Part shown: in pieces, positions 1,419-61,165 of the stretch
Layout of the letters: each line of letters opens with the position of its first letter
Position numbering within the stretch: the first letter of the stretch is position 1
NCBI GenBank assembly: GCA_001567365.1
Contig: JZEL01000029.1
Location: forward strand, 17,525-81,524
Origin: Parcubacteria bacterium OLB19
Lineage (GTDB): Bacteria; Patescibacteriota; Minisyncoccia; Phycocordibacterales; UBA918
Length of the DNA stretch: 64,000 nucleotides
Direction of reading: 5' to 3'
The notes under the pieces: model-generated
Told to the model about the DNA's origin: nothing
Database searches by the model: none
The model's input: only the letters and a program-made list of their open reading frames with translations
Made by a program: the position numbers and the translations under genes

Positions 1419-2486
1419 ATGAACAACATGGCTTTAAATAACCAAACTCAGAAAAAATTGAAAAAAATACTAGTTGTTTCAACTTTAGCTGTAGGTGCTT
1501 TATTGCTTATCCTCTTATTATTTTTGCTTTGGACTAAATATGTGGTTCACAGTGAAAAAACTGTTTATGTCACCACACCAGACAGTTCTATTAAAATAGA
1601 TACAGAAACAGACGGGCTAGAAACCTTTCCCGTCAGCGTTGATCCAGTAAACAAAAAAATAGTTGAGGATCCAACTCTTAATTCCTATTTAGAAAATCAT
1701 TTATCGATGAACGATAATAGCAAATACCGACAAGCCAGATGGTTTGATCGAATACTGGCCAAATTATCGGAATCGAGTCTATACCAACAGCTCGCTTCTC
1801 CACGCAGTCGTATATTGGTAATTTATCCAGGAGAAAGAAGAGAGGAGATAGTGAAAAATTTTGGTGACATTTTACGCTGGAACAAGGAACAAAGAAAAAC
1901 TTTTTCAGATAAAATTACTAAAACCGAACCTTTACTTGAAGATGGTAAATTTTTTCCTGGACGTTATGTGGTAGATACCAAAATCACTCCAGAAGCCGTA
2001 GGTGATTTGGTCAACACTAGATTTATCAGTGAGATTTTAAATAAATATGATGATACAGTTGCCGATAAAGTTCCACTACAAGACGCTTTAATCATTGCTT
2101 CACTACTAGAAAGAGAGGCTTATGACTTTACCGACATGCGACAAATATCTGGCATAATCTGGAATCGTTTATTTGTTGAAATGCCACTTCAACTTGATGC
2201 CAGCCTACAATACGCTCGGGGTAGCAAAGTAAACGAACCAAAATGGTGGCCAACTCCAATACCCGCCGATAAATTTCTCAAGTCACCATACAACACATAT
2301 AAAAATACAGGATTACCTCCCACTCCAATTGCCAACCCTTCAGTTGAAGCGGTGGTAGCCGCCCTTAACCCAGAGGTAACTCCTTGTATGTTTTATTTTC
2401 ATGACACTAAAGGTGGTTTTCATTGCACAAAAACCTACGAAGAGCATGTAGCTAAATTAAAGAAAATCTACGGACGTGGAATCTAG
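1419..2486 (+). CDS. mltG: endolytic murein transglycosylase MltG (YceG family)
   Basis: N-terminal TM. C-terminal YceG signature LQLDASLQYARG ... YNTYKNTGLPPTPIANPS ... A...NP...YFHD..G..H.T..EH. Confidence 0.8.
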   Translation: MNNMALNNQTQKKLKKILVVSTLAVGALLLILLLFLLWTKYVVHSEKTVYVTTPDSSIKIDTETDGLETFPVSVDPVNKKIVEDPTLNSYLENHLSMNDNSKYRQARWFDRILAKLSESSLYQQLASPRSRILVIYPGERREEIVKNFGDILRWNKEQRKTFSDKITKTEPLLEDGKFFPGRYVVDTKITPEAVGDLVNTRFISEILNKYDDTVADKVPLQDALIIASLLEREAYDFTDMRQISGIIWNRLFVEMPLQLDASLQYARGSKVNEPKWWPTPIPADKFLKSPYNTYKNTGLPPTPIANPSVEAVVAALNPEVTPCMFYFHDTKGGFHCTKTYEEHVAKLKKIYGRGI

Positions 2487-2540
2487 AAAATCTAAAAATT
2501 TTAAAAGCGCTGTTTGCAAGCAAACAGCGCTTTTTGTGCC

Positions 2541-2786
2541 TTACCAGCATCTGGTGTAACCACCGCACGGCAAGGTACGAATTGTTCCTCCACCCCTATT
2601 ACCCCTATTATACATTCCAGGGTATGCACGATGGCCATAATCTGGTCTTACGTAGGCACCACCACCATAAGGAGCAGCACCGTAACCCACTCTGTAATTG
2701 TATCCACCTTCTATATAGGGCACACCCACGCACCCACTAAGTAAAATCGATAGGAGTAATAACACTCCAATAATAATCTTTTTCAT
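2541..2786 (-). CDS. small Gly/Tyr-rich lipoprotein (signal peptide + lipobox LLSGC)
   Basis: 81 aa. MKKIIIGVLLLLSILLSGC followed by a GYG/GGY-rich low-complexity region. Confidence 0.5.
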   Translation of the reverse strand: MKKIIIGVLLLLSILLSGCVGVPYIEGGYNYRVGYGAAPYGGGAYVRPDYGHRAYPGMYNRGNRGGGTIRTLPCGGYTRCW

Positions 2787-2905
2787 GATGCCCTCCTAGA
2801 GCAAAAAATGAAATTTTGAAGAACTTTATGTTTTTATTATATCATTTTCATTGTTTTTGTCAAGGTTTTTACTTAATTATTGTGTATAAATTTTATAAAA
2901 AAAAT

Positions 2906-2950
2906 AAGCCGTCAAATTAAGCTTTCGCTTAATTTGACGGCTTTATTTGG
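2906..2950. terminator. bidirectional rho-independent terminator (perfect 17-bp stem aagccgtcaaattaagc/gcttaatttgacggctt, A-tract before, T-tract after)
   Basis: Inverted repeat read directly from the sequence. Lies between two convergent/adjacent small genes. Confidence 0.6.
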
Positions 2951-2959
2951 TGAATCATT

Positions 2960-3238
2960 TTATTCCCCACCTCCGCCATCACCTCCATCAAAACTTGATC
3001 CGTCTCCAATATTGACATCACCGTCATTATTGAAGTTGTTTATTGTGTCACCGTCATTATGATGATCATGATGGTAGTGATGATCACCAAAACCCCCATA
3101 ATAACCTAGCCCATAACCCATACCAAAGGCCCCTAATCCATAAATTGCTGGATTATAATAGCCACCTCCATAATATGCGGGAGCATTACCATAACCACCA
3201 TAGCCATAATTAGCATATCCGCCTGCTGGTATGGCCAC
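2960..3238 (-). CDS. paralogous Gly/Tyr/His-rich small protein; N-terminal signal-peptide/lipobox (…LLVLTGC) is out of frame
   Basis: GYG repeats plus a DHHYHHDHHNDGD His/Asp-rich tail. The upstream 45 nt (tcatgatgccctcctagagca(a/g)aaaatgaaatttt(t)gaagaac) is near-identical to the upstream of 2541..2786, but there is a 1-2 nt indel right after the ATG. Confidence 0.4.
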   Translation of the reverse strand: MAIPAGGYANYGYGGYGNAPAYYGGGYYNPAIYGLGAFGMGYGLGYYGGFGDHHYHHDHHNDGDTINNFNNDGDVNIGDGSSFDGGDGGGGE

Positions 3239-3371
3239 ACAGCCGGTCAGAACAAGCAGAATAATAATTGCTAAGGATATTTCTCATGATGCCCTCCTAG
3301 AGCAGAAAATGAAATTTTTGAAGAACCTTATTGTCTTTAATGGTATCATACTTTAGTCATTATGTCAATGT

Positions 3372-3412
3372 AAAAGCGGTGGTTTTGCGAAGCAAAACCA
3401 CCGCTTTTACTC
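3372..3412. terminator. rho-independent terminator hairpin (aaaagcggtggttttgc-gaa-gcaaaaccaccgctttt)
   Basis: Perfect 17-bp inverted repeat flanked by A/T tracts, downstream of 3428..4012(-). Confidence 0.6.
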
Positions 3413-3427
3413 TTATAAAGAAGTTTT

Positions 3428-4012
3428 TTATATCCCTTTCTTACCCAACTCAGTTACCTCCTTTGCCCATTTCTCTCTCATCTTATCATCCACTCTTTCA
3501 CAAGGTCCAAAAGCACTTACGGCTGTGCGGATTCCTGCAAATTCCATAATTCCATATTGAATCTCATTGGTAAAATCACCAAACTGCCACCAAGTCTTAA
3601 AGGGGCTATGCGTACCTGAAAGAATAATTACACGTCCAGTCCTCCCTTTTAAATGCTTTTCAATCTGACGAGTTTGTTTATTGAAATTAAAAGCAAATCC
3701 AGGAAGCCAAAAACGATCAAACAAACCTTTTAGTATCGCCGGCATAGTACACCACCAGTTTGGATAGATGATTACAATATGTTCAGCAGCGCGGAATTTA
3801 TTTTGTAACTCTATCAAATCAGGTTCGAGCTGTTGAATCTCCTTATAACCTTTATGTAAAATTGGATCAAAATTAAGTTCACCGATATTAACCCTCATCA
3901 CAGTATGTCCCGCATCTTCTGCTCCAGCTTGATAATAATCGGCCATAACTCCTGTGTAGGAATCCTTATCAGGGTGACCACACAAAACTAGAATATTCTT
4001 TGGATTTTTCAT
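3428..4012 (-). CDS. flavodoxin-like fold NAD(P)H-dependent oxidoreductase (MdaB/KefF/Flavodoxin_2 family)
   Basis: 194 aa: ILVLCGHP...DSYTG...IIYPNWWCTMPAILKGLFDR..LPGFAF, typical of NAD(P)H:quinone oxidoreductase-like proteins. Confidence 0.65.
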   Translation of the reverse strand: MKNPKNILVLCGHPDKDSYTGVMADYYQAGAEDAGHTVMRVNIGELNFDPILHKGYKEIQQLEPDLIELQNKFRAAEHIVIIYPNWWCTMPAILKGLFDRFWLPGFAFNFNKQTRQIEKHLKGRTGRVIILSGTHSPFKTWWQFGDFTNEIQYGIMEFAGIRTAVSAFGPCERVDDKMREKWAKEVTELGKKGI

Positions 4013-4033
4013 ATTCCTAATAGTATAACGGAA

Positions 4034-4058
4034 AAGGCGCGGGCTTCGCCCGCGCCTT
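4034..4058. terminator. GC-rich hairpin (aaggcgcgggc-ttc-gcccgcgcctt), likely terminator
   Basis: Perfect 11-bp GC-rich stem in an AT-rich context. Confidence 0.45.
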
Positions 4059-4069
4059 GTTGATTACTT

Positions 4070-4400
4070 CTACTGTCTAATAGTTCCATTAGGATTAAAT
4101 TGTCCTTGAGCACCCATTTGCATTTTCATCAGTTGTTCCTTCATTTCTGGACTCATTACAGCTAAAATTTCTTTTTGGTATTTAGGTAAAACTTTCATCG
4201 CCGCTGCCATTTGATTATTCCCGTTTACCTTTAATTCTTCTTGCATTTCTTTAGCAATTTTTTTCAAACAACGCTGGATCTTTTTCTATCATCTCCAGAA
4301 TCATTTGTTGTTGTTCTGGTGGAACATCTTTCATCTGTGATTGAAGCACTTTTTTTAAGTGCGTATTGTTTCAATTTTCCAAACATAATACCGACGATTG
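4070..4400 (-). pseudogene. degraded or frameshifted small gene (fragments MFGKLKQYALKK / MKDVPPEQQQMILEMIEKDPALFEKN / KIAKEMQEELK...MKEQLMKMQMGAQGQF)
   Basis: Three consecutive reading-frame pieces on the minus strand read as one helical, Met/Gln-rich polypeptide when joined. Only the last piece is an ORF in the track. Confidence 0.3.
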
Positions 4401-4422
4401 TATCATAATAATAATTTGAGCA

Positions 4423-5715
4423 CTATCTCCTTGCCAGCCAAGCAGAATCTTGTCTTACCAATAATTCACCAGCTTTTTCTGGTTCTTGCATAACTTCTTC
4501 AACTATCTTTTCAGCCCGAATCCCCTGAGAAGCTTTGATTAAAACCACATCTCCAGCTTGAATAAAGTTTTGTAATTCCCGCCCCGCTTTGGCAACATCA
4601 TCATATTGAAAAATATTTTTTTCACTCATACCGTACTCCAAAGCAGTCTCAGCTATCTTTCGCGCCCTAACACCTATAGTAAAAAGTACATCGGCCGAAC
4701 CAGCAACCAATTCACCTATTCTCTCATGCTCACGTGGTGAAAAACGTCCCAACTCTAACATATCACCTAAAACTGCGATCTTTCTTTTAGCTTGCTTGAT
4801 TTCTTTCAAGGTAATAATCGCCTGTTCTGCTGCAGTTGGTGATGAATTATAAGTATCATCGATCAGAACTGATCCTTTGATCCCTTTAATAATACGCATT
4901 CTCCCCGGTGGTGACATATGAGTAGACAAATCATCAACCGCCTCTCTTACAGCAACTCCACACTGTGAAGCCACAGCAATTGCGCCCGCGTATGTATATA
5001 CATGCTGACCACCAACAACGCCAGAAATTTTTACTGTATGGTTTTCGGATAAATTATTTATATCAAAACTCAAACCAGCCGGCACATCATCATGATAAAA
5101 AATTTGATCATTACTAGCCGTAAATTGTGATGGTAGATAACGGCTAAAACCAATAGCTTTGTGTCTTACTTCAGCTAATTCTTTTTGAATAATTTCGTCA
5201 TCATGGTTGTAGATAACCACTCCTTCCGGTTTAAGCGCTTCAACTAGTTTCATTTTTTCATCAATCACAGACTGGGGGTCAGAAAAATACTCCACATGCA
5301 CAGGTACATCTGGTAAACGCGTCAACACCGCCATGTCTGGTTTCATCCAACTAGTTAGTCTACTCATATCTCCTGGACGATCAATACCAGTTTCAAGCAC
5401 AAGATAAGTAGGATAATCTTTTGAAAATAAAGCAATAAAAAAACCATCCACTAAATTTTTCAACCACAAAAAAGGGTTATTCCACGCATTAGGTAAACCG
5501 AGAACAGTCAGTGGCACACCAATATCAGAATTAAAACTCTTTTCACTTTTTCTGGTTGGATAGTGTTTTTTGAGGATACTAAAAATAGCATCTTTCATAG
5601 AGGTTTTACCAACGCTACCAGTAATAGCGATAATAATTGGTTTGTGACGCTTCAATAAAATTTTCGCTTCAAACACCAACACATAAACTACAAAACTTTT
5701 AAATAAATTTTTCAT
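4423..5715 (-). CDS. murF: UDP-N-acetylmuramoyl-tripeptide--D-alanyl-D-alanine ligase MurF
   Basis: Mur ligase P-loop IAITGSVGKTSMKD. MurF-specific DDTYNSSP (DxxYNANP) motif. Sits directly downstream of ftsI in the dcw cluster. Confidence 0.8.
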   Translation of the reverse strand: MKNLFKSFVVYVLVFEAKILLKRHKPIIIAITGSVGKTSMKDAIFSILKKHYPTRKSEKSFNSDIGVPLTVLGLPNAWNNPFLWLKNLVDGFFIALFSKDYPTYLVLETGIDRPGDMSRLTSWMKPDMAVLTRLPDVPVHVEYFSDPQSVIDEKMKLVEALKPEGVVIYNHDDEIIQKELAEVRHKAIGFSRYLPSQFTASNDQIFYHDDVPAGLSFDINNLSENHTVKISGVVGGQHVYTYAGAIAVASQCGVAVREAVDDLSTHMSPPGRMRIIKGIKGSVLIDDTYNSSPTAAEQAIITLKEIKQAKRKIAVLGDMLELGRFSPREHERIGELVAGSADVLFTIGVRARKIAETALEYGMSEKNIFQYDDVAKAGRELQNFIQAGDVVLIKASQGIRAEKIVEEVMQEPEKAGELLVRQDSAWLARR

Positions 5716-5716
5716 A

Positions 5717-7438
5717 TTAGCGATCAGGTGGGATTGTATAATAATTAATCAGAAATTTTGCTATATCCATAAAGGGCTCGGTTAGTGTCTCTGAAGCATA
5801 CTTCACCCCTTTCGGCTCAACAGTATACATGAAAACAATGAATTTGGGGTCAAAGGCAGGAAAATAGCCAAAGAATGAGTGTAAATACTTATCTTCATAA
5901 TAACCACCACCATTAGGATCTGCTATTTGCGCAGTTCCGGTTTTGGCACCAATAGTGTAATTTTGCATCTTAAATTTACCTTTACCCAGAGCTTCATCCA
6001 CCACCGTAGTAAGCATGCGAGAAATCTCTTCACTACTTTCTTTGCTAATAACCTGCGCACCCTTAGGATGGAGAATTTCTTTCACAGTACCATCTTCGTA
6101 CTCAATCGCTGATGCCAAGTGTGGCGTTACCAAATACCCTCCATTACCGAGAGTCGCCAAAGCGCGGATAGTAGCGATTGGGGTTAAGGCAATACCTTGT
6201 CCAAAAGACGCTGTTGCATATTCGACATCACGAGGGGATTTTAGATTTTCAATCAAACCAAAAGCTTCATTGGGTTGATCGATACCAGTTTCGCTTCCTA
6301 ATTTGAAATTATAAAAATATTCTCGAAACTTTTCCTTACCCATCTTTTGAACAATATACGATACACCTGTATTTAAAGATTGATTCAATACTTCTTGCAT
6401 TTCTACCGTACCACGACCTTTTCCGTCATAGTTCTTGATTGTAAAAGTATTTAAAGTAATAGAACCAGCATCAAAATAGGTTGAATGACGATTAATAGCA
6501 CCACTATCAAGTCCGGCCGCCATCGTTAAAGCTTTGATAGTAGAACCAAATTCATAAACGTTTTCCACTAACGGATTTTGGAAGAACTCGACTGTTGTTG
6601 TTCCTCGATCATTTAAATTAAACCCCGGTACTGCATTCATCGCATAAATAGCGCCGGTCTTTGGATCCATAATGATGGCGCCAGTCATTTTGCTTTCATA
6701 ACGAGCATTAGTTTCAAGCAATACAGAATCTAGCATTCGCGCTACAGTTGGCTCTATAGTAGTAACAACGTCACCCTTGGGTGATGATTCCTCTTTACTA
6801 TAGACCATATCTCCGAGGTTACTAAAAATTTCGGCAAAGAAGTTAACCGACCGGACCTCACGATCACGCACCAAAACATCATCATAATAACGCTCAAGGC
6901 CATACTTACCATGAAGATCATCATCAGTTTTTTCTGTGTAACCAACAAACCCTATTACCTTAGCCGTCAAATCATCACCCGGATAATAGCGCCATTGATT
7001 GCGATAAAGCTGAACACCATCGAGATCAAGATTTTCAATTTGTTCTGCGATTTCATCAGGAATGGTAAGATCAATCTCTACGTAAGTACGTTCCTTCAAA
7101 CTAGCTTTTTCTAAACAACGTTCCTTCTCCACCTTTAAAAATGGTTGTAACTTTTCACAAACAGCATTTGGGTCTGTGATTATAGTTGGATTAAACGCCA
7201 ACAAAAACCCAGAACGGATTGAAGCGGCGGAAACTTTCTCTCCGTCCTTGGTAGTAAAAAAAATCGAACCACGAGAATACAAATCCTGCTTAGTATGTAC
7301 ATATTGTCTCTCTGCCCTGTCAGTATAAAAATCATTTTGACTTACCTGCAAACAATATAATCTAAACAATAATATTAAGGCTAAAAATAGAACAATGCCG
7401 GTAATGACACGAATTCTTATTACCATTTCGCGTCTCAT
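5717..7438 (-). CDS. ftsI: penicillin-binding protein FtsI (class B transpeptidase)
   Basis: N-terminal TM. SxxK (GSTIKAL), SxN (NQSLNTG) and KTG (GAKTGTAQ) motifs. Position in the dcw cluster. Confidence 0.85.
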   Translation of the reverse strand: MRREMVIRIRVITGIVLFLALILLFRLYCLQVSQNDFYTDRAERQYVHTKQDLYSRGSIFFTTKDGEKVSAASIRSGFLLAFNPTIITDPNAVCEKLQPFLKVEKERCLEKASLKERTYVEIDLTIPDEIAEQIENLDLDGVQLYRNQWRYYPGDDLTAKVIGFVGYTEKTDDDLHGKYGLERYYDDVLVRDREVRSVNFFAEIFSNLGDMVYSKEESSPKGDVVTTIEPTVARMLDSVLLETNARYESKMTGAIIMDPKTGAIYAMNAVPGFNLNDRGTTTVEFFQNPLVENVYEFGSTIKALTMAAGLDSGAINRHSTYFDAGSITLNTFTIKNYDGKGRGTVEMQEVLNQSLNTGVSYIVQKMGKEKFREYFYNFKLGSETGIDQPNEAFGLIENLKSPRDVEYATASFGQGIALTPIATIRALATLGNGGYLVTPHLASAIEYEDGTVKEILHPKGAQVISKESSEEISRMLTTVVDEALGKGKFKMQNYTIGAKTGTAQIADPNGGGYYEDKYLHSFFGYFPAFDPKFIVFMYTVEPKGVKYASETLTEPFMDIAKFLINYYTIPPDR

Positions 7439-33724: not shown

Positions 33725-34310
33725 GGACATTCGTCAATTTATGTTGATGATATACTTTTATATCATGATCAAAAAAAGAGACGAGAACCTATGCCGATCG
33801 TGCCGAGTACTTAAAATTAGCAGTTATCAAACGCCGTAAAAAAAGTGCGGGATATGGCTCTTGAGTACAAAGGTGGCAAATGCTGCATTTGCGGTTACAA
33901 TAAAAGTAAACGCGCACTTTCCTTTCACCATATAGATCCTAATAATAAAGACTTCGGTATTTCTTATCGAGGATTTACTAGGTCATGGGATAAAACTAAG
34001 ACCGAATTAGATAAATGCATCTTAGTTTGCATGAATTGCCACATGGAAATACACGACGGTATTACGCAGCTTCCGATAGAAATATCGGAATGAAAACAAG
34101 GTGAATTGTCTGGAAGCCCGAAACAGGTAAAGCTGTGGGTAATCAGCAGCCAAGCTTTTTGGTCAACGAGGCCGAACTGAAGGTTCAGAGACTATCCCTT
34201 ACGGGAGTACGGCTCGAAAGAGTTGGAAGCGCCTTGCACCCTATGATTTAAATTATTTATATCACGGGTGATGATATAGTCCATCCCTTTAGGAAACTTT
34301 TGGATAAATG
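33725..34310 (+). mobile_element. group I-like self-splicing intron (IC3-like core motifs) carrying an HNH homing-endonuclease ORF
   Basis: Exon ends in U and intron ends in G. The 3' part contains agccaagcuu and guucagagacuaucccuuacggga, resembling the P6/P7 (cagagacua) region of bacterial tRNA group I introns. An internal guide sequence was not confidently identified by eye. Confidence 0.5.
33845..34093 (+). CDS. HNH endonuclease (intron-encoded homing endonuclease candidate)
   Basis: 82 aa with CxxCG...HHIDP...N...CMNCH HNH/zinc motifs. Lies entirely inside the tRNA-Asn intron. Confidence 0.7.
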   Translation: MRDMALEYKGGKCCICGYNKSKRALSFHHIDPNNKDFGISYRGFTRSWDKTKTELDKCILVCMNCHMEIHDGITQLPIEISE

Positions 34311-47911: not shown

Positions 47912-48021
47912 TTTTGTAATTAATACGTATTTATAAGTGCGGAATCGAGAGATTCTACCACAATACGTCTATTTTATGGTATTCTTTCATCATTCTGATT
48001 ATTTCTTAATTCATTCAACCT

Positions 48022-48607
48022 ATGCCTATAGTAGCCATAATATTAAGTTTGAGTCTAATTGCTCTCGGTGTCTATTTAATAAATAATAAAAGCAATCAAG
48101 AAAATTTTGCCACTGCGAAAACTGAAGAGATACTTACAACCAAACCAGAGGAAATTGAACCTGTAAATAACGAAACAATTACTACAACACAAGAAGCAGA
48201 TTCAACTACAGAAACCAACATCACTGAAAATGAAAAGGTAGAAGAAAATCAGATCACCAATAACACTGACTCCTCAAAAAAACACTGTATATGAAATCGT
48301 ACCCGTAAGTGTAGAAAAATCCTACACTAGTGAAGCTGTATATTTTGCTTCCAACAATAAATACACTATTGATGTAACACTTGATGTGAAAGATGGAGTA
48401 GTAATCAACTCTGATGTTATGTACGGAAACAAGGAAACCGGTTACCAGCACCCACTTCAAGAACGTTTTGATGGCGCTTACAAAACTCAAGTGGTTGGCA
48501 AAAGACTAGAAGATATATCATTATCACGAGTTGGTGGTGCTTCTCTAACCTCCAAAGCCTTCAATGAAGCCATTGCTAATATTATTGATCAAACTACTCA
48601 ATCTTAA
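48022..48607 (+). CDS. secreted FMN-binding (FMN_bind) domain protein, split by an A7 homopolymer frameshift at ~48276-48282
   Basis: Signal peptide/TM, Thr/Glu-rich linker, then …NKETGYQHP…SRVGGASLTSKAFNEAI, matching the FMN_bind pattern ETPG…D.VSGAT.TS. The flavinylated position is Ser here. Confidence 0.5.
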
Positions 48608-49486
48608 ATGTCCAATCTCTTACCAGAAATCAAAGCTCTTGGCACCATTTGGTGGATTGAAATTTTCTCGGAAATATCAGATAAAGACAAGCAGGTCGTC
48701 TACGACGACCTGCTTGTCTTTATCTCTGAATTTGAAAATAAATATTCTCGTTTTCGCCAAGACTCACTTATCACCAAACTAAACGACACCAGAAAAATTG
48801 AAAACCCTGATCATATTACAATTGACTTATTACAGACCGGAATAAATTTATATAAGCAAACAGAGGGTTTGTTTAATATTTTAATTGGTGAAATCTTAGA
48901 AAACCGTGGTTATGACGCTAATTATTCATTCCTACCCAAAGAAGCAAATCTTATCATTCCTAATCCAACCGAAGAATTAAGCATATCCCAAAACCTAATT
49001 ACACTGAGTAAGGGACGAATTGATCTTGGTGGTTTTGGTAAAGGCTACTTAATAGATTTAATAGTAAAAAGATTAAAAGATAATTTTAATTTAGAATATT
49101 TTTTAATTAATGGCGGTGGTGATATTTATGCCACTAGCGACAATGGTAAACCTATAGAAATTTACCTTGAACACCCTATAGAAAAAGATACATTCATCGG
49201 CACTACCACCTTATTTAATCAAGGTTTTGCCGCCTCAAGTCCACACAAGCGCAAATGGAAAGCTGGAGACAAAATCTTTAGCCATATAGTAAACACAAAA
49301 GAAGAACCTATTTCTATAGATGGCACTTTTGTAAAAGCTGACACAGTAGCAAAAGCTGACGCTTTTGCTACTGTGTCACTAATAACCACACCAGAGAAAA
49401 TTATTAATTTTGCTAACAAATATAATTTTTCTGTGGCTTTTATAAAAAGCAATGATACGAGTTTGTTTTATAATAAAAATTGGTGA
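48608..49486 (+). CDS. apbE: FAD:protein FMN transferase ApbE
   Basis: LSKGRIDLGGFGKGYLIDLI ... FLINGGGDIYA ApbE signatures. Confidence 0.85.
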   Translation: MSNLLPEIKALGTIWWIEIFSEISDKDKQVVYDDLLVFISEFENKYSRFRQDSLITKLNDTRKIENPDHITIDLLQTGINLYKQTEGLFNILIGEILENRGYDANYSFLPKEANLIIPNPTEELSISQNLITLSKGRIDLGGFGKGYLIDLIVKRLKDNFNLEYFLINGGGDIYATSDNGKPIEIYLEHPIEKDTFIGTTTLFNQGFAASSPHKRKWKAGDKIFSHIVNTKEEPISIDGTFVKADTVAKADAFATVSLITTPEKIINFANKYNFSVAFIKSNDTSLFYNKNW

Positions 49487-49595
49487 GACTTTTACTAACT
49501 TAAGATTATTGACAGCAAATCATAATACCTGTAGTGTAAAGAGTGACAGAAGGCACTCACTGCTAAGCGGGGGGTGCCTTTGTCTTTTTTTATAG

Positions 49596-50332
49596 TTACT
49601 TTTTTCTAGGAAAAAATGTTGGTGTTTGAAACATGTATTTACCTTCTAACAAAATTGGAGAAAGATCATTACCAATCATTTTTTCTGTTTTTCCCAAATA
49701 ATGTCGTGTCAAACTCGAAAGAGCCAAATCAATCATCTGTAATCCGTTATTATTGTCACTTTTTGGCTTACAAACAAGCTTTGTTTTTCTTTTAATGTCC
49801 TCACCAGAATGAAATCTGGCACCAGTGGACTTAAGACGTTCATATTCAGCCAACAATGCATTATCTAACTCTTTACCACGACATTCTGCAACTATTTCGA
49901 CAACTGCATCCTTTGTGTGCCACAGAACTCTATTAATTAAATTTTCAAAAGAAAAATAGTAGGGATCAGCTGGCTGCGAATAATAATCAATGTGTAATTG
50001 CTTATGAATAAAGCAAGCAACAAGTGAAAATTCATGAGCCGTAATAATAGCAGTATCGATTTCCTGATAAAAATTTTTCTTTGTTCTGGATCAAGAAGAA
50101 ATATATTTCTCGGATCGCTTCGCGAATCTTTTGGACGTTTCAATTCTGATGAATGTAAAATAATAGCGGTTGAACCGTAATACTTCTCTTTTATTTTATC
50201 TACTTCATTATTTAATTTTTCATACGTCAATTCAGAAATACAGAGACCACCTAATGCAAATATGGGGTAAGTCGGATCAATTTTACTCAAATTATGATCA
50301 CCCGATTCATCAATAAACAGATAGTATTTCAT
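49596..50332 (-). CDS. DUF3800 family protein, interrupted by a 1-nt indel in an A5T5 run (~50065-50075)
   Basis: N-terminal MKYYLFIDESGDH…YPIFALGG (DUF3800 hallmark). The alternative frame continues …NFYQEIDTAIITAHEFSLVACFIHKQLHIDYY… into the 49596..49856 ORF. Confidence 0.6.
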
Positions 50333-50399
50333 CGGTATTATGATAACACAGTAGAAGCAGGCTTATATAAATCATAATTCTGTATTATAAAAAACATCA

Positions 50400-52780
50400 T
50401 TAAGCCCTCAAAAATCCAAGTTCATACACTTGTGGTTGTAGCTTCTCGGTCAGGAGTTTGTACGCCGTCTCAAATTCGGTAAAACTCACAGGCACCACAT
50501 CGCCACTCTCGTTTCTACGTTTAAGAGCATTGCGGATTTGATACCAGCCAACATCGGCACGATTTAGTTTTAATTCATCACGGACGTTGTGCTCATCGGT
50601 ATGTGTAAAATACGCTTGCCACAATTTCTTTCCTGCTTCCAAAACCGCTACCGCTTCTGGAGAAAGCTGTTTGTCGGCCAAATAACGCACCATAAAATCC
50701 GATTCAAAACGCTCAGGCGCACCCACCTCTTCTTCGGTGTATGGAATAAAATGATTGACGATAGACCATTTTTTGTCATTCCATTCTAGGTCGTTAGCAC
50801 TGGCGGTGAGGTTGCTACCATTAAACAACATCCAGATAAGGCAGTCGTTTTTGAATTCGTCGGTTAAAGGTTCAGACGGTTGCAAAAATTGATCACGGTC
50901 GTTTATCCAGGTGGGTTTGATAAGACGACGGACTGAAAAGACAACAGAAGCTTGTCGAAGGTTTTCACTGTTTACGTAAAAACCATGACCATCTCCCCAT
51001 ACCGACGAAAATAATGCTGTTTGGGTTGCAGTGTGCTGTAAGTCATTATTTTGTGACCACACATATGCGACAGCATTATCAGACCATTTATTAAGGTATT
51101 TTTTAGAAGTATATGGAGAAACCGTATTTTTTAATGGTACAACTTCCGTGCTATTTGGTTTTGGTCTATCAAGCCAAACGTTTAAATAAGTATTTACTGG
51201 CAGATTAAAGAATTTCTTTTCACCCATTGGCTCAGCTTCTTGTTCAAAACATCTAACGTAATCTCTGTAATTGGTGTTTTTTCTTTTGAGTTATTTGCGG
51301 TTTGCCACACCAAAAAACCAATCGGAAAATTTCCCTTTAATCCTTCAAAAGCCTTACTATGAACAATAAAACCTCCCATATATTTAGCATTCCATTTCTC
51401 CCTAAATAATTCAAAATTAGGAGCATTTACATACTTAAGTGTACTAAACATGGCTAGGGTAGCTGTTGGTATTTCTTGTGAAATACGGGCAACAAATTGA
51501 GTAAACAATTCATTACTAGATTTACCATAATTTTTCATTGCTGTACTCGCAATTTTTGTTGATGCCACATTATCCTTTGAATCTTTACCTAAGGTATTAC
51601 CCGCCTCAGCATACGGTGGGTTTATCAGCACTAAAATTTTCTTGCCACTCGCTATCGCTTTACGTAAACTTTCGGGGATTTTGTTGGTGAGAGTGTAGTC
51701 GATTTTTCCATCATCGGTGATATCGTCATTTAGATAATCATATTGAAAACGAGTCGCTGCGGTGCAGGTCTTAGTGGCTTTCATAACATCGACATCAGCT
51801 TGATCGAGTGTCGACATGAAAATATTGCGCGGATTGCTATGCTTTACTTCTAGGTTCCCTACCCCGCAACACATATCCCACACAATATATTCTTGTTGCC
51901 AATTATTTCCTAAGGTCTCGGTGAGTTTGTCGTAGGCTTTGTCTACCACATGCAGTGGAGTGTAATAAGCACCCTTAAAACTCCGTTCATCAAGTGGAAT
52001 CAAGCTGTCACGCCGTTCGAGTAAGTAATCGCGGTATTCGGCTTTTGGTGGTTTGTGGTAGATTGCCCAAAATTGTCGGTAACCTTCTTTATTTCCGAGT
52101 TCGTAGAGCTTGCCTCCCAAACTAAATACTGGTGCATTATTTTTGTGCAGTAGCTCAGCCGGCAAATCGTTGTGAGTTGAAATAGTACCATCATGCATAA
52201 TGTCGGCAAAGAAAAGTAAAGCGTAATCTTCTTCTGGTACATCTTTTATTTCCTTACCAATCATCTCCACCCATTTATCAAATACTTGCTTGAGGTTGTC
52301 GGGAGTTATTTGGGTACGAATAATATCGCCGTGTTTGATAGCGTTTTTAATTGCTTCGATAAATTCAGCTTCGTGTGTTTTTATTTTAAACGAGACAAAG
52401 TGTGTACCAATATATGCCGACACAGCATCAAGCGCTTCTTGAGTGTAGCCACTAGCCGACTTTCCCCACTTGATAGTTTTCTTTTCGAGCAGTGGTAAGA
52501 CATCGACAGTTTTCATTAACGCTGCTTTTTCAGTATCAATAACAGCTAAAAACGGAGGTAGATCTTCACCATGATTTAGTGCCTCCTGTACATAGTGCAA
52601 AAGCTGAGTAAACATCGCATAACTAGAAAGTCGAGAGTTTTGCTTGGCCTCAAACCAAATTTCTTTGGTCTGAATATCGATAAGATTTTTTTGATAACCC
52701 TTAAGACCAAGAGCTTTTATATAGGCATCTTTAACATCTTCCTCACTGGAAGCTTTCTGTAATTTTTCGTAAAGGCTCAT
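50400..52780 (-). CDS. large (~790 aa) gamma-class N6-adenine DNA methyltransferase with N-terminal PD-(D/E)xK-like motif and C-terminal target-recognition-like region; two overlapping ORFs joined by an A6/A7 frameshift near ~51270
   Basis: Motif I-like WDMCCGVGNL. Motif IV VLINPPYAEAG (NPPY). N-terminal …LIDIQTKEIWFEAK… (D-x10-E-x-K). The ORFs overlap by 34 nt in different frames. Confidence 0.65.
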
Positions 52781-52824
52781 ATTTTTATTCGTATAATTAG
52801 GATTATATTAGCATAAAAGTGGTA

Positions 52825-52859
52825 AAAACAGCACGGCGCCAAAGGCGCCGTGCTGTTTT
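52825..52859. terminator. bidirectional terminator (aaaacagcacggcgcc-aaa-ggcgccgtgctgtttt)
   Basis: Perfect 16-bp stem between the methyltransferase and atpD ends. Confidence 0.7.
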
Positions 52860-52881
52860 GTTGTTTTATTATTTTTACAAA

Positions 52882-53508
52882 CTACCCCTCCTTCGCGACA
52901 ATCATCGCCTTTACTCTCATAGTAGATACCACCGCATCACGAGCTCGTTCATCGAGTTGCATGGCGATAAATTTAATAGTTTCCTCTAAATTTGGAATCA
53001 TCACATTCTCAAGAGCCGATACTCGACGACGAGTTTTTTCAATTTCTTCAGCTAGGTTTTCAGCACTTTTCTCCAATCCTGCCAAACGCATAATATCAAC
53101 AAAAACCTCGTCGAATTTTACAATCGCATTATCCAAATCTCCAGAAGTATCTAAGGAACCATAAGCAAAAGCCGAACCTTCCTTAGATACCTTAAACTCA
53201 GGGATCTTAACAGACATTACAGTCTTCACAGCTACTTCGAGATTAATTTCCGCATTAGGCACCAACAAAGCCACCTCCTGAGCTAAACGTGAAGTAGTTG
53301 CACTTGAGCGCTGATAAGAATCAAAAGCCATACCCAATCGCTCTTCAACTGACTTTCGTAAATCGCGAGTTTCAAAGATTATCGCCATAAACTTTTTGAT
53401 CAAGCCATCACGCTTGTCTTTTAGAAGTTTATGTCCCTTCTTGGCTACCTTAAGTTCTTTCTTAAGATTTAGAAGAGAAATTCGTGTTGGACTAACTTTT
53501 AATATCAT
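52882..53508 (-). CDS. atpD: A/V-type ATP synthase subunit D
   Basis: 208-aa coiled-coil protein MILKVSPTRISLLNLKKELKVAKKGHKLLKDKRD… typical of V-ATPase D. Confidence 0.85.
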   Translation of the reverse strand: MILKVSPTRISLLNLKKELKVAKKGHKLLKDKRDGLIKKFMAIIFETRDLRKSVEERLGMAFDSYQRSSATTSRLAQEVALLVPNAEINLEVAVKTVMSVKIPEFKVSKEGSAFAYGSLDTSGDLDNAIVKFDEVFVDIMRLAGLEKSAENLAEEIEKTRRRVSALENVMIPNLEETIKFIAMQLDERARDAVVSTMRVKAMIVAKEG

Positions 53509-53524
53509 GTTTTATGTAGACGAA

Positions 53525-54904
53525 TTATTCAGCCTTTGGCATGTGTTTGTCGACAAACTCAGCTTTAACACGCTTCAACGATTCACGAGGAAGCATAGCT
53601 AGAAGTTTCCAACCAATATCAAGTGATTCTTCTACCGAACGATTTTCAAATTCACCTTGCCCCACAAACTCACGTTCAAAAGCTTCCGCGAAGCGCAAAT
53701 GTGCCTTATCTGAATCATCAAGTGAAGCTTCACCCAATACTACTGCCAACTCTCGTACTTCACGACCGACTGCATAAGAAGCAAACAATTGATCTTTAAG
53801 ACCACTATGATCAGCACGAGTCTTACCTTCACCTACTCCAGCTGACCATAATCGAGACAAAGAACCTTGTACATCCACCGGTGGAAATACACCCTTACGA
53901 TATAATTCGCGGGAAATCACAAACTGCCCTTCTGTAATGTAACCAGTAAGGTCAGGTACCGGATGAGTCTTGTCATCATCAGGCATACTTAGAATTGGAA
54001 TTTGTGTAATAGTTCCCTGCTTACCTTTTACCCGTCCAGCTCTTTCATAAATAGTAGAAAGGTCAGTATACAAATACCCCGGATAACCACGTCGGCCAGG
54101 CACCTCCTTTCGTACAGAAGATACTTCACGCAAAGCTTCACAGTAGTTGGTCATGTCAGTCAAAATCACCAGTACGTGCATTCCCTTTTCAAAAGCCAAG
54201 TACTCAGCTGTAGTCAAAGCCATACGTGGTGTGGAAATACGCTCAACCACTGGGTCAGCCGCTGTATTGATGAAAAGTACACTTCTCTCAAGTGAACCAG
54301 CTTCTTGAAATTGACGCTTAAAGTATTCAGCTTCTTCAAAAGACACACCGAGAGTAGCAAATACAATCGCAAACTCTCCACCATCTTTCACTTTTGCTTG
54401 ACGAGCAATTTGCGCTGCCAAACGTGAGTGCGGTAAACCAGCTCCAGAAAAGATTGGTAGCTTTTGTCCACGCACCAAAGTATTCATCACGTCGATTGAT
54501 GAAATACCAGTTTGAATAAAGTCATTAGGGAATTCACGACTGTAAGGATTGATAGCGTTACCATTAATATCGATACGCTTTTCAGGGATAATTTCTGGAC
54601 CACCGTCATTTATTACACCAGCACCCGTAAAGACCCGACCGAGCATGTCTTCACTTACACCAAGCTTCAATGTATCACCTGTAAAACGTACACGAGTATC
54701 TTCAGCTTGTACTCCAGCCGTTGGATCAAACATCTGTACCACGGCTTTATCTTCTGACACATCAAGCACCTTACCCAAACGGGTCTGATTTTCGCCCGGA
54801 ACATTTACTTCCACCAACTCTTCGTACTTTACTCCACTAACTCCCTCAACCACCAAAAGTGGTCCAGTAATAGCAGAAACGGTTTTGTATTCTTTTTGAC
54901 TCAT
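53525..54904 (-). CDS. atpB: A/V-type ATP synthase subunit B
   Basis: 459 aa. Non-catalytic B subunit pattern, with a degenerate P-loop region and SGAGLPH…. Confidence 0.9.
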
Positions 54905-54908
54905 ATTA

Positions 54909-56702
54909 TTAAGCGTTAGTTTGGGTTAGAGCTTTGATTTCCTCTTTGACTCTACTAATAAAATTCTCATAATCTGATACTTCACGTTTCTCCTTTAGAC
55001 GACCAATTTCTTTATAAGTAGACATTTGCTTGAAACGAGAAAACTCAAATTCATCAGTAGTCACAACCGGTAAACCTTCATTGTAGAAAGTAACAATTGA
55101 TTTAAGAAGATTGTACTGAATCTTGATCGGCATATATGCATCACTAGGGTCAAAAGCGTTTTGCATTAGGAAATCTTCACGAATCATACGTGCCACTTCC
55201 AAAGTAAGTTTGTCACTGTTTGATAATGACTCCATACCCACAAGACGAACAATCTCAAGCAATTTTGATTCCTTTTCCAAGAGCTCCATTGCTTGTTTTC
55301 GAATATTAGCAAAATCAGGGGCTACATTTTCACGCCAGAAATCTAATAAGTTATCAACGTAAAGTGAATATGAACCAAGCCAGTTGATAGATGGGAAATG
55401 TTTTTTGTAGGCCAATCCAGCATCAAGTGACCAGAAAGTTTTGGTCACACGTAGAGTTGATTGTGACACTGGTTCAGACAAGTCTCCACCAGGAGGAGAA
55501 ACCGCACCAATTACTGTGAGTGACCCTTGTCTCCCTTCAGAACCAAGAGTTTCTACTACACCAGCTCTTTCATAAAATTGTGCTGTGCGAGAAGAAAGAT
55601 AAGCTGGATAACCTTCCTCTCCCGGCATTTCTTCCAAACGTCCTGAAATTTCACGCATCGCCTCTGCCCAACGTGAAGTAGAGTCAGCCATTAAAGCTAC
55701 GTTATAACCCATATCACGATAGTACTCAGCAATAGTAATACCGGTATAAACTGAAGCTTCACGTGCCGCTACTGGCATATTAGAAGTGTTAGCAATGAGG
55801 ATAGTTCGCTTCATCAAAGGCTCACCTGAGTTTGGATCAATCAAGTGTGGAAACTCAGAAAGCACTTCTGTCATTTCATTTCCTCGTTCACCACAACCAA
55901 TATATACAATCACTTCAGCATTACAGTATTTAGAAATAGATTGTTGAGTCACAGTCTTACCAGCACCAAACGGCCCAGGAATACACCCAGCTCCACCTTT
56001 AGCTATTGGGAACAAAGTATCAATCGAACGACCACCAGTTAAAAGCGGTTCCGATGGGAAAATCTTTTTATTCTTTGGTCTTGGCTCACGAATTGGCCAA
56101 TATTGAAGCATAGCTACCACTTCAATTTCACCAGACTCAGTTTTAATCTCTGCAATTGTTTCTGTGATATTAAAATTACCTGATTTGATATTAGTAATTA
56201 CACCAGAAACATGAGGTGGTACCATTACCTTATGTACAATTAACTTAGTTTCAGCAACCGTACCCAAAATATCACCGCCAGTTACTTTGTCGCCTACTTT
56301 GGCTACAGCTTTAAAATCCCATTTTTTATTCTTATCCAAAGCCTCAGCATCAATACCTCTTTTAATATATACAGAACCGGAAGCCTCCTCGATAGCCTTT
56401 AGAGGTCGTTGCACGCCATCATAGATAGACTCCAAAAGACCAGGGGCTAGTGCCACTGACATAGTTTTACCGGTACGAAAAACCGGATCACCGGGCCCAA
56501 CACCAGTTGTATCTTCATACACCTGAATTGAGGCAATATCACCATTCAACTCAATTATTTCTCCAAGAAGTTTTTCTGAAGACACTTTAACCAACTCATA
56601 AAGTTTGGCAGAAGACATGCCGTTGGCACGCACCAATGGACCCGTCACTCTCACGATTTCTCCTGCCTTTGTTGCTTCTTGTGTATTAATTGTATTTGTC
56701 AT
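54909..56702 (-). CDS. atpA: A/V-type ATP synthase catalytic subunit A
   Basis: 597 aa. Walker A GPFGAGKT with flanking V-ATPase A non-homologous insert. Confidence 0.9.
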
Positions 56703-59174: not shown

Positions 59175-61165
59175 TTAACCACTATCCTCCTTTAACAAAC
59201 ATGTATAAGACTCTCTTTTAGTTAGTGGTTTAAATTCTCTCCCCGTGCCGGTGATAAACTTACCAAAGAACTCTACAAACTGCAAACGAGCACTATGAAT
59301 GAAAGAACCTAATGTATTAATCACTAGAGTAAACACATGTCCAACAATTAATACGAAAACTGCCAACACTGCACCGATATAAGGAATCATTTCATAAACA
59401 ATTCCCGCAATCAAATTAACGGCAAAAGCTAGAGCGCTTGTGGCTAGACCCAAAGCCAAAAGTCGAGAATAAGATAAGATATCAGATAGATAATTAATAC
59501 TATTGTACACACTAAGTAGACTCATCTGCACTTTACCCAAGATAGTTTTACCTGTACGACCACTAGCCAAAATTACAAAAGCTATCGCAAGATAAATCAG
59601 TGTCACTATTCGTTCTTCGTTAAATGGTAGAAATCCGAAAGTAGTAGCACCATAAACTATAAGTAAAGTAAATAATAGAAGCCAAGGACCTTGATCCAAA
59701 AGACCATTTACTAATTGTCCATTTTTAGACTCACTTACAATCTTTAAAATCATACCTACCATTACCTGTAACACACCTAGAGACAGAGCTAGATAGAAAA
59801 CCGGTAGAGGATTTCCAATTGGATCAAAAGCTTGAAGGTCTTGCAAAAACTTTGGCATCTCACTCATATTTACACCAAAGTATCCACCAAAAAACATACC
59901 GATAACAACCGTTGAAAGACCCAATAGGAAAATCAACTGGCTAAACTGTTTCGCTATTTTTGAAACCTTAAAATAAAACAAGAAAGGTAAAGCCATCAAC
60001 ATCAACAAAGCGCCGTACCCTACATCTGTTAAACAAAGACCAAAGAAGACAAAGAAGAAGACTGCCATAAACGGAGTAGGATCAATATCCTTATGTCCCG
60101 GTAAACCATTCAAACGAGTAATAATTTCGAATGGTTGAATGAGTTTATGATTTCTTATTTCAACTGGTGGAATTTCATTTTCAGCTAAGGATATTTCTGC
60201 CAAGTCATACAACACACCTTCCTCAGTAATTTTCTTTTCGAAAAGTGGTAAATTACTTTTATCAGCCCAGCCCTCAAAAACAGTTATATGTTTTGTATTT
60301 TTTACCAAACCACCAACCAGCTCACGATCACAATCCCAAACTAAGGCATCATGCGCGATTTTAATTTTTTCTAAATAATTTGTCGCAAACAAAATCAATT
60401 TACTTTTAGTTTCTGCAAGAGCACTTTCTACTTCTGCTATTCTCTTATTTAGATACTCGATTTCATCTACCGTTCTTTTTGTATAACCAACCAAATTAAT
60501 AACTTCACCTCCTAATGATTTTATGATTTGCAAAACAAGATTGTTGTCAGTACCTACTGGAACGGTTACACTAAAATACTGATTACCAACATCCTCAACA
60601 TAAGATTCGATAGCTTCCTTACCAAAAGATGCATTTATTTGCTCTGACAGGGTTAGATTCTGATTTTCTATTTTTTTTGACATTTTTGATTCTAAATAGA
60701 AAAGTCGAAGTGTAGTTCGTCTTCAGCAATCCCAAAGACACGCTCAGATCTTTCCATGGAAGCAACGTTGCTTTTTTTTTCATTTAAAGCAGATAGTTCC
60801 GCTATAGTGTTATTAAATCCGATTTCCAAAACACTCAAATCTTGTAAGACAGTCTCAAGATCGGATTTATTCAAAATTTTTTCACCAAGATTACCTTCAG
60901 AAACACTAATTAATGACCCTTTCTTTAACTTAGCAAAAGTACCTAACTTTTCTTCATAATTACTGAGAAAAGTAATTGCCTGCTTTACTTTTATTAACTT
61001 ATCAGTATTTTCACTCGAAGATATATTTGATTCAGTTAAAAATCCATCAACCTCATCGATTTTCTTAAACTCAATAGCGCCAATTTTTTGCGCTGTTTCC
61101 AGCATTTTCGCCACATCTTGACGATAAACAAAAAGACGAACTTTGGTAATAGGTACTATGGCCAT
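59175..61165 (-). CDS. atpI: A/V-type ATP synthase subunit I (a subunit), split into two ORFs at a T8/A8 homopolymer (~60671-60680)
   Basis: 60692..61165 encodes the N-terminal cytoplasmic part (MAIVPITKVRLFV…). 59175..60683 encodes the rest, including the membrane domain with the RLLALGLATS region. 157 + 502 aa gives a canonical ~660-aa subunit I. Confidence 0.75.

Follow-up and report, generated by a model that had tools for sequence, protein, structure and literature searches.

A putative one-protein restriction-modification gene of Type IIL design and its DUF3800 neighbor in Parcubacteria bacterium OLB19

Introduction

Among described systems, the closest to the gene considered here are the Type IIL restriction-modification enzymes, of which two, MmeI (PDB 5HR4) and DrdV (PDB 7LO5), have solved structures, together with Type IIG enzymes such as BpuSI (PDB 3S1S) and the Eco57I family. 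Type IIL enzymes are single polypeptides with a PD-(D/E)xK nuclease, a linker, a gamma-class N6-adenine methyltransferase, a recognition domain, and a C-terminal domain; they work without a separate methylase, specificity or restriction subunit, and they vary their specificity via the recognition domain on a conserved scaffold. We compared with these systems two genes on the minus strand of positions 49596-52780 in a 64,000-nucleotide stretch of contig JZEL01000029.1 of Parcubacteria bacterium OLB19 (hereafter the window, whose numbering is used throughout). The original prediction, made from the sequence alone, had read them as a defense-island-like pair, a DUF3800 protein next to a ~790-amino-acid (aa) single-chain N6-adenine methyltransferase resembling combined restriction-modification enzymes of Type IIG/IIL (MmeI-like). 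Both genes are there, with products of 793 and 245 aa once a 1-base homopolymer deletion in each has been repaired. We consider it rather probable that the 793-aa gene is a complete, solitary one-protein restriction-modification system of Type IIL (MmeI/DrdV) design; the defense pair did not hold up.

MmeI has ~919 aa, and the DrdV chains have 1011-1016 residues. Stand-alone gamma-class N6-adenine methyltransferases (M.BseCI, M.TaqI, and CamA) and Type I HsdM are without the ~260 N-terminal residues of nuclease and linker found in the 793-aa protein, and HsdM moreover requires separate HsdS and HsdR, both of which are absent at this locus. The DUF3800 family has DE and QxxD motifs and a predicted RNase H-like fold (PMC7736814), and the literature links it to some retrons and CRISPR loci, among them type VII retrons and Cas12a2, Cas12a3, and Cas13 loci.

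Domain architecture and predicted structure

The putative single-chain nuclease-methyltransferase gene (50400..52780, minus strand) is recognized from its open reading frames (ORFs), the repaired protein, a match to the database protein P0001, and a structure model. A predicted PD-(D/E)xK nuclease domain occupies the N-terminus (residues ~1-150; 52331..52780), where the motif D35-x8-E44-x-K46 (D35 at 52678-52676, E44-x-K46 at 52651-52643) is preceded by an acidic helix, E13-E14, and followed by Q59-xxx-Y63 (52606-52592), which we take to be a RecB/Cas4-family feature and set down as a difference from MmeI and DrdV. This motif had been proposed as D-x10-E-x-K; it is present and conserved, but with a spacing of eight residues. 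Then comes a linker of helices and beta-hairpins (residues ~151-262; 51995..52330; secondary structure of the models), in which N162, W170, and D193 are invariant (alignment A2) and which, by analogy with MmeI and DrdV, would couple the nuclease and methyltransferase activities. The gamma-class methyltransferase domain (51343..51994) carries GAYYTP (residues 270-275; 51973-51956), WDMCCGVGNL (residues 301-310; 51880-51851), and NPPY (residues 387-390; 51622-51611), i.e., motif X, then I, then IV, with a Rossmann-like fold, which bears out the motif order predicted earlier. The 403 residues C-terminal to NPPY include a hypervariable, beta-rich segment (residues ~480-625; 50907..51342), singled out by its variability among relatives as the putative target-recognition domain, and a conserved, mostly helical C-terminal domain (residues ~626-793 plus the stop codon; 50400..50906) with a TWxNDRDQF motif at its start and a predicted local distance difference test score (pLDDT) of 90-98.

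The catalytic motifs are strongly conserved in a family alignment of 54 members with 25-72% identity to the query: E44, K46, G270, T274, D302, G306, L310, S323, N387-P388-P389, Q428, R460, and P635 are invariant columns, and D35 and Q59 are each kept in at least 90% of the aligned members. In the C-terminal domain, which is highly conserved among close relatives, W625, N627, D630, and P635 are near-invariant.

An AlphaFold2 model of the full-length protein, built from the family alignment, had a pLDDT of 90.4 and a predicted template modeling score of 0.79. Its closest structures are those of DrdV and MmeI; a Foldseek search of the PDB placed DrdV first (E = 6e-12, ~760 aligned columns), then BpuSI, LlaBIII, M.BseCI, BsaXI, CamA, and PglX. 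Since residues 1-262 were also modeled apart (pLDDT 93.1), the N-terminal domain could be tested alone, and this predicted model too matches restriction-nuclease folds, the catalytic D...(D/E)xK residues being placed on neighboring strands. The N-terminal domain thus has, as modeled, a restriction-endonuclease fold with conserved catalytic residues. A protein without a nuclease fold that clusters with orphan methylases would have spoken against the Type IIG/IIL reading; what we found was a nuclease motif conserved throughout the family and DrdV and MmeI as the nearest structures, to which the exchangeable, putative recognition segment described below is added.

An unannotated family

The 793-aa protein matched no family in Pfam or NCBIfam and did not reach the curated threshold of any methyltransferase model in either, and a sequence search of the PDB gave nothing usable. 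PADLOC returned MTase_II over residues 268-330 only (E = 4.4e-5). When the 54 members were scanned with Pfam, N6_Mtase, Eco57I, AviRa, and Cas_Cas4 matched sporadically and weakly (N6_Mtase in 7/54, best E = 1.6e-4; Eco57I in 1/54), and the family profile against the PDB found M.BseCI (E = 6.8e-4) and Type I HsdM proteins. Homology in sequence to the MmeI family, as would be expected of a Type IIL enzyme in the narrow sense, was not found. By sequence the protein appears to lie outside the MmeI family, and we therefore class it with a family that is new and unannotated, although its kind of enzyme is known.

This family is large. One search matched >5900 clusters at 90% identity, and an exhaustive search of a library clustered at 50% identity gave 2007 representatives at E <= 0.001 and 639 at E <= 1e-30, mostly full-length at ~800 aa. 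Close and distant members alike are named "hypothetical protein" at their sources, and no model in Pfam, NCBIfam, or PADLOC covers them; the family may already stand in REBASE as putative Type IIG.

An exchangeable, putative recognition segment

The variable segment behaves like a cassette. Across 120 close relatives, conservation is lowest at residues 480-620 (0.44-0.65 identity to the query vs. 0.8-0.99 elsewhere), and pairwise identity of the core is nearly uncorrelated with that of residues 480-625 (r = 0.13). Clustering the same relatives at 80% identity gave 2 clusters of cores and 76 of segments. Eight pairs combine a core identity of at least 93% with a segment identity of at most 70%, and three pairs show the reverse pattern. 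P0001 and P0002, which are alleles of the same locus, illustrate the contrast: their cores are 99.8% identical, their segments (480-625) 48.6%. At the DNA level, contig L083, from a sister strain, is 97-100% identical to the window over both genes and the adjacent apbE, except at window 51600-50900 (residues ~393-627), where identity falls to 53-83%.

The segment sits right after the methyltransferase fold, and because this is where MmeI has its recognition domain, residues 480-625 would by analogy set the DNA specificity. Variation of specificity on a conserved scaffold, typical of Type IIL enzymes, is thus visible here as a pattern in sequences. The ~400 aa after NPPY had been suggested as a possible target-recognition domain, and part of them does behave as such a domain would.

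Distribution, neighbors, and selection

Scanning one genome per species yielded 482 loci encoding relatives of the large protein. The best 80 are full length at 70-79% identity and belong to Bacteroidota, Gamma- and Betaproteobacteria, Saccharibacteria, Peribacteria, Vogelbacteria, relatives of Ignavibacteria, and Helicobacteraceae. All-against-all clustering of 841 ORFs from 82 loci revealed no recurrent neighbor of the large gene, and neither conserved flanking DNA nor terminal repeats marking a mobile element were found at the loci, a few pairs sharing 20-190 nucleotides (nt) upstream. Members occur on 10-16 kb plasmids of Acinetobacter and Fluviibacter and on plasmids of Lactobacillus and Helicobacter pylori, small-plasmid carriers including Fluviibacter phosphoraccumulans SHINM1 (pSHINM1) and Acinetobacter sp. 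SH20PTE14 (pYUSHP14-3); the gene is alone on 10-kb plasmids and in distant members, and lies beside housekeeping genes in gut bacteria. At the 82 loci, on the plasmids, and in the distant members it does without a separate methylase, specificity or restriction subunit, as Type IIL enzymes do, and no such gene was found in its neighborhood in the window, in agreement with the original prediction.

Distant members (35% identity) also lie on phage-like contigs (L131, 6001-8349; L135, 6001-8523), and phages may deploy the putative enzyme to fight competing phages or their hosts. The 148-kb contig L131 carries genes for ribonucleotide reductase, a primase-helicase, Rad52, and GP88, and L135 has many small ORFs and a polynucleotide-kinase-like gene. 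The GenBank phage collection held no match to the 793-aa protein.

One clade of the family is 73-79% identical across phyla. Copies from different phyla (L001, L003, L005, L017, L022, L029, L032, and L053) share ~74-79% protein identity in a star-like pattern, a plateau that seems unusually tight for restriction enzymes. Their synonymous sites are saturated (proportion of synonymous differences, pS, 0.72-0.88; nonsynonymous distance, dN, 0.15-0.20), and the G+C content of the gene tracks that of its host (r = 0.79). The similarity therefore stems from long purifying selection, and recent horizontal transfer was dropped as its cause.

Outside this species, the large gene has its nearest relatives mostly in Bacteroidota. 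The OLB19 organism may live on the Bacteroidetes population BCD2 (PMC4821891), and gene sharing between a Bacteroidetes host and its Parcubacteria epibiont is possible.

Proposed mode of action

If the 793-aa gene is a Type IIL-like system, the variable segment (~480-625) and the methyltransferase domain would together read a short, asymmetric DNA site, and the NPPY pocket would methylate one adenine there with S-adenosylmethionine, a mark that would protect the host. Unmodified DNA would be cut by the PD-(D/E)xK domain (D35, E44, K46) at a fixed distance from the site, probably only once molecules at two or more sites meet, because the protein has a single nuclease motif, like MmeI, which works in this way. 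Exchange of the variable segment between near-identical genes would create new specificities. The gene itself travels alone, being found on chromosomes and small plasmids and also on some phage-like contigs; in OLB19 it sits in an insertion hotspot that separates the V-ATPase operon from apbE.

Several observations weigh against this reading. The protein is 11-13% identical to MmeI and DrdV in structural alignments and 120-230 residues shorter, and since its linker is shorter too, the cutting geometry may differ, or cutting may be absent. MmeI-type Pfam models (MmeI_N, MmeI_hel, MmeI_Mtase, MmeI_TRD, and MmeI_C, all presumably present in the Pfam copy searched) matched neither the repaired protein at E <= 1 nor the 54 members at E <= 0.01, and the likeness in sequence to known methyltransferases is marginal (N6_Mtase, 1.6e-4; MTase_II, 4e-5; M.BseCI, 6.8e-4). 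The structural support comes from predicted models, not from solved structures, and we infer all the enzymatic activities, methylation of one strand, cutting at a distance, and the need for two sites. The conservation across phyla may reflect an additional or different constraint. Finally, both genes carry frameshifts in the window and no other window gene checked does, which fits real inactivation in OLB19 as well as sequencing error.

A broader possibility, which we put forward tentatively, is that these proteins make up a very large family of compact restriction-modification enzymes, each a single protein, that has so far gone unrecognized. It would number ~2000 clusters at 50% identity, with copies of at least 70% identity in 482 or more species, would span Bacteroidota, Proteobacteria, Patescibacteria, and Campylobacterota as well as small plasmids and some phage-like contigs, and would combine a swapped segment of ~145 residues with a scaffold under exceptionally strong purifying selection. 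Such a family would offer a natural plug-in platform on which to build new DNA specificities. Should its members be active, thousands of genomes, those of streamlined Patescibacteria included, would carry a restriction-modification system for which Pfam, NCBIfam, and PADLOC have no model; inventories of defense systems and interpretations of methylomes that rely on such models would miss it, and the compact, conserved 793-aa scaffold would be a second one besides MmeI for engineering chosen specificities. A cross-phylum identity of ~75-80% with saturated synonymous sites would then also bear on the way in which continual transfer maintains selfish restriction genes. For the window itself the practical consequences are modest: the two genes came together by accident in an insertion hotspot, and their frameshifts are probably sequencing errors.

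Alternative explanations

The protein might instead be a solitary, non-restricting adenine methyltransferase whose nuclease-like domain serves DNA binding or another role, the function being epigenetic regulation or protection of mobile DNA. Members do occur on small plasmids and phage-like contigs, where protective methylases are common, the nuclease-less CamA and M.BseCI match the central part well in structure, and strong, long-term purifying selection fits conserved orphan methylases better than restriction enzymes. A domain dead in catalysis is, however, not expected to retain D35, E44, K46, and Q59, and among sequences otherwise only 25-30% identical E44 and K46 are invariant and D35 and Q59 kept in at least 90%. 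Moreover, the best full-length structural matches are bifunctional, and diversification of the recognition segment as extreme as that seen here is expected from conflict between phage and host, not from regulation. We regard a non-restricting methylase as unlikely.

The frameshifts raise the question of whether the genes work in OLB19. In the window the large gene is split into minus-strand ORFs 52780-51194 (528 aa) and, in another frame, 51227-50400 (275 aa from the first ATG), and the DUF3800 gene into 50332-49937 and another frame running down to 49599; joining the frames gives the 793-aa and 245-aa proteins. Alignment with L001, a Logan contig from another sample with 99.2% DNA identity over 7.4 kb and both proteins intact, showed two indels only. 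The first, GG to G at 51234..51236 (G2>G1, near 51235, minus strand), lies in the large gene, where the intact relative has AAGAAGGCTGAG and the window AAGAAGCTGAG; the second, T6 to T5 at 50066..50071 (near 50068, minus strand), lies in the DUF3800 gene, where relatives have AAAAATTTTTT and the window AAAAATTTTT. The repaired 793-aa protein is identical (100% identity, 100% coverage) to P0001, which L001 encodes intact at 3365-5746. Both genes are also intact, the DUF3800 gene again at 245 aa, on four ENA contigs of a sister strain (L083-L086), so that correcting the frameshifts and searching for full-length orthologues, as the original prediction had advised, led to intact copies of both.

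Both genes could be sequenced correctly and be true pseudogenes in the OLB19 population, parts of a decaying island that does nothing in this organism. The deposited sequence has one frameshift in each of them and none in the 4.2 kb of flanking genes aligned to L001, where no indel occurs, and the other overlapping ORF pairs checked in the window are distinct, intact genes. Restriction genes, besides, often become inactivated. Against this stand the intact copies on five Illumina-type contigs of the same locus and the nature of the changes, both of which are homopolymer contractions typical of IonTorrent. The OLB genomes are IonTorrent PGM data (OLB19 reads under BioProject PRJNA274364), in which, by their authors' statement, persistent frameshifts are common and were fixed after annotation by a homology-guided script with manual curation (PMC4821891). 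We infer that such correction works where annotated relatives exist and would miss genes without them, like the two considered here, which would explain why errors were left in these two only. Because near-identical contigs are intact, the source metagenome-assembled genome was sequenced by IonTorrent, and both changes are homopolymer contractions, both frameshifts are probably IonTorrent errors and both genes probably intact in the organism; decay is improbable. Phase variation was dropped as a cause of the frameshifts, the runs being merely G2 and T6 and the IonTorrent explanation simpler.

An MmeI-like build might also follow another logic, with the methyltransferase module acting as a sensor of DNA state, in a manner like bacteriophage exclusion (BREX) or modification-dependent systems, or with the gene acting as an addiction module. 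BREX PglX and Type ISP enzymes are among the structural matches, conservation across phyla is unusually high, and carriage on small non-mobilizable plasmids would suit post-segregational killing. Yet no locus that we looked at had BREX or helicase partners, and all catalytic motifs of the methyltransferase are invariant; addiction, for its part, is compatible with an ordinary restriction-modification mechanism and so is not truly a rival. We give such schemes little credence.

The DUF3800 gene

The DUF3800 gene (49596..50332, minus strand, split by the 1-base deletion) is a clear member of its family: the repaired 245-aa protein scored 63.3 bits against Pfam DUF3800 (PF12686; cut-off 21) and has both an N-terminal DE (FIDESGD) and a C-terminal QxxD (QMID) as these motifs are defined in PMC7736814. 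Unlike the DUF3800 proteins linked to retrons or cas genes, it stands alone at 245 aa, with no tetratricopeptide repeat domain and with no reverse transcriptase or cas genes nearby. No DUF3800-associated RNA motif or other credible RNA was found around the gene, an Rfam scan giving chance-level matches (E >= 1.5). It has ~60 detectable relatives, and those with a named source are all labeled Patescibacteria. A promoter-like site (TTGAGG, 16 nt, TATAAT; 10/12 matches; 50384..50411, minus strand), found by a consensus scan, lies upstream of its start and overlaps the 3' end of the large gene; it suggests that DUF3800 may be transcribed independently.

A functional two-gene defense system in which DUF3800 is the effector or partner of the methyltransferase-nuclease is hardly credible. 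In its favor, the genes share a strand, lie side by side with 67 nt between them, and are enclosed by two terminators; five contigs from this strain or a sister strain keep the arrangement; other DUF3800 genes are tied to retrons and CRISPR loci, and PADLOC gave a weak match to the candidate PDC-M04A (E = 9.5e-4), but a tblastn search found DUF3800 within 6 kb of the large gene at 0/80 loci of other species, so that the adjacency is confined to this species and is not conserved across unrelated genomes, no neighbor family recurs, the DUF3800 relatives examined in other Patescibacteria lie in unrelated contexts and never next to a gene related to the large one, G+C (0.33 in DUF3800 vs. 0.40 in the large gene) and phylogenetic affinity set the two genes apart, DUF3800 has the promoter-like site of its own, and the five syntenic contigs are not independent observations because they are the same locus by descent. 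The co-occurrence check thus refuted the proposed pair; DUF3800 is here an accessory gene in its own right, of a kind typical of Patescibacteria, and a chance neighbor.

The locus and its insertion hotspot

Housekeeping genes flank the two genes as predicted, with apbE (48608-49486, plus strand) on one side and V-ATPase subunit D (52882-53508), followed by subunits B and A, on the other. The strong terminators said to bracket the region also exist, but neither is the island's own. A perfect 16-bp stem with a T-run after it on the minus strand (52825..52859; -29.7 kcal/mol, z = -7.9), just upstream of the large gene, terminates the V-ATPase operon, and a hairpin between the convergent apbE and DUF3800 genes (about 49545..49592), strong on the plus strand with a U7 tail (-32.3 kcal/mol, z = -5.0, vs. 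-16 kcal/mol, z = -1.4, on the minus strand), terminates apbE. Repeats inside the island were limited to short matches at chance level.

Relatives identified by their ATPase D subunit share one conserved gene order (ATPase B, ATPase D, spacer, apbE, NqrF-like gene), and the spacer, 0.8 to 2.7 kb long, holds neither the large gene nor DUF3800. What it holds varies: a HAD-like hydrolase (2404-3090) in the closest relative, L091 (D subunit 95% identical), a ribbon-helix-helix antitoxin with a ParE-like toxin in L112, L113, and L115, and a Phd-like antitoxin or other genes in others. In L112 and L113, moreover, 39 codons from the 3' end of the D-subunit gene are duplicated, and this fragment looks like an insertion scar at the gene's end (coordinates: L112, 1184-1812 and 1861-1977; L113, 9511-9627; L115, 8920-9479). 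The spacer between the ATPase genes and apbE is thus an insertion hotspot with differing accessory genes, and "defense-island-like" holds for accessory genes in such a hotspot, but only loosely for a defense island.

The comparison with L083 had a further feature. ATPase B and D (about 53100-55060) are 80-90% identical between L083 and the window, and the island, apbE, and the next genes (48000-53100) 97-100%, the switch falling within the D-subunit gene. The pattern is suggestive of recombination between lineages that have diverged within this Parcubacteria species.

Other features of the window

A group I intron (Rfam RF00028, 75.6 bits, E = 2e-18) lies at 34003-34303 (plus strand) and overlaps the end of a small HNH-endonuclease-like ORF (33845-34093, plus strand) with CxxC...HH...CxxCH. 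Neither an rRNA nor a tRNA gene that could host it was detected nearby, and the 64-kb window as a whole has no tRNA. The ORF of V-ATPase subunit I (59175-60683, minus strand) is short, at 502 aa covering only positions 203-458 of the 815 in the profile. It is preceded, 8 nt away on the same strand, by a 157-aa ORF without a family match (60692-61165), and the short ORF could be due to another frameshift or stop that escaped correction, or the subunit could truly be split.

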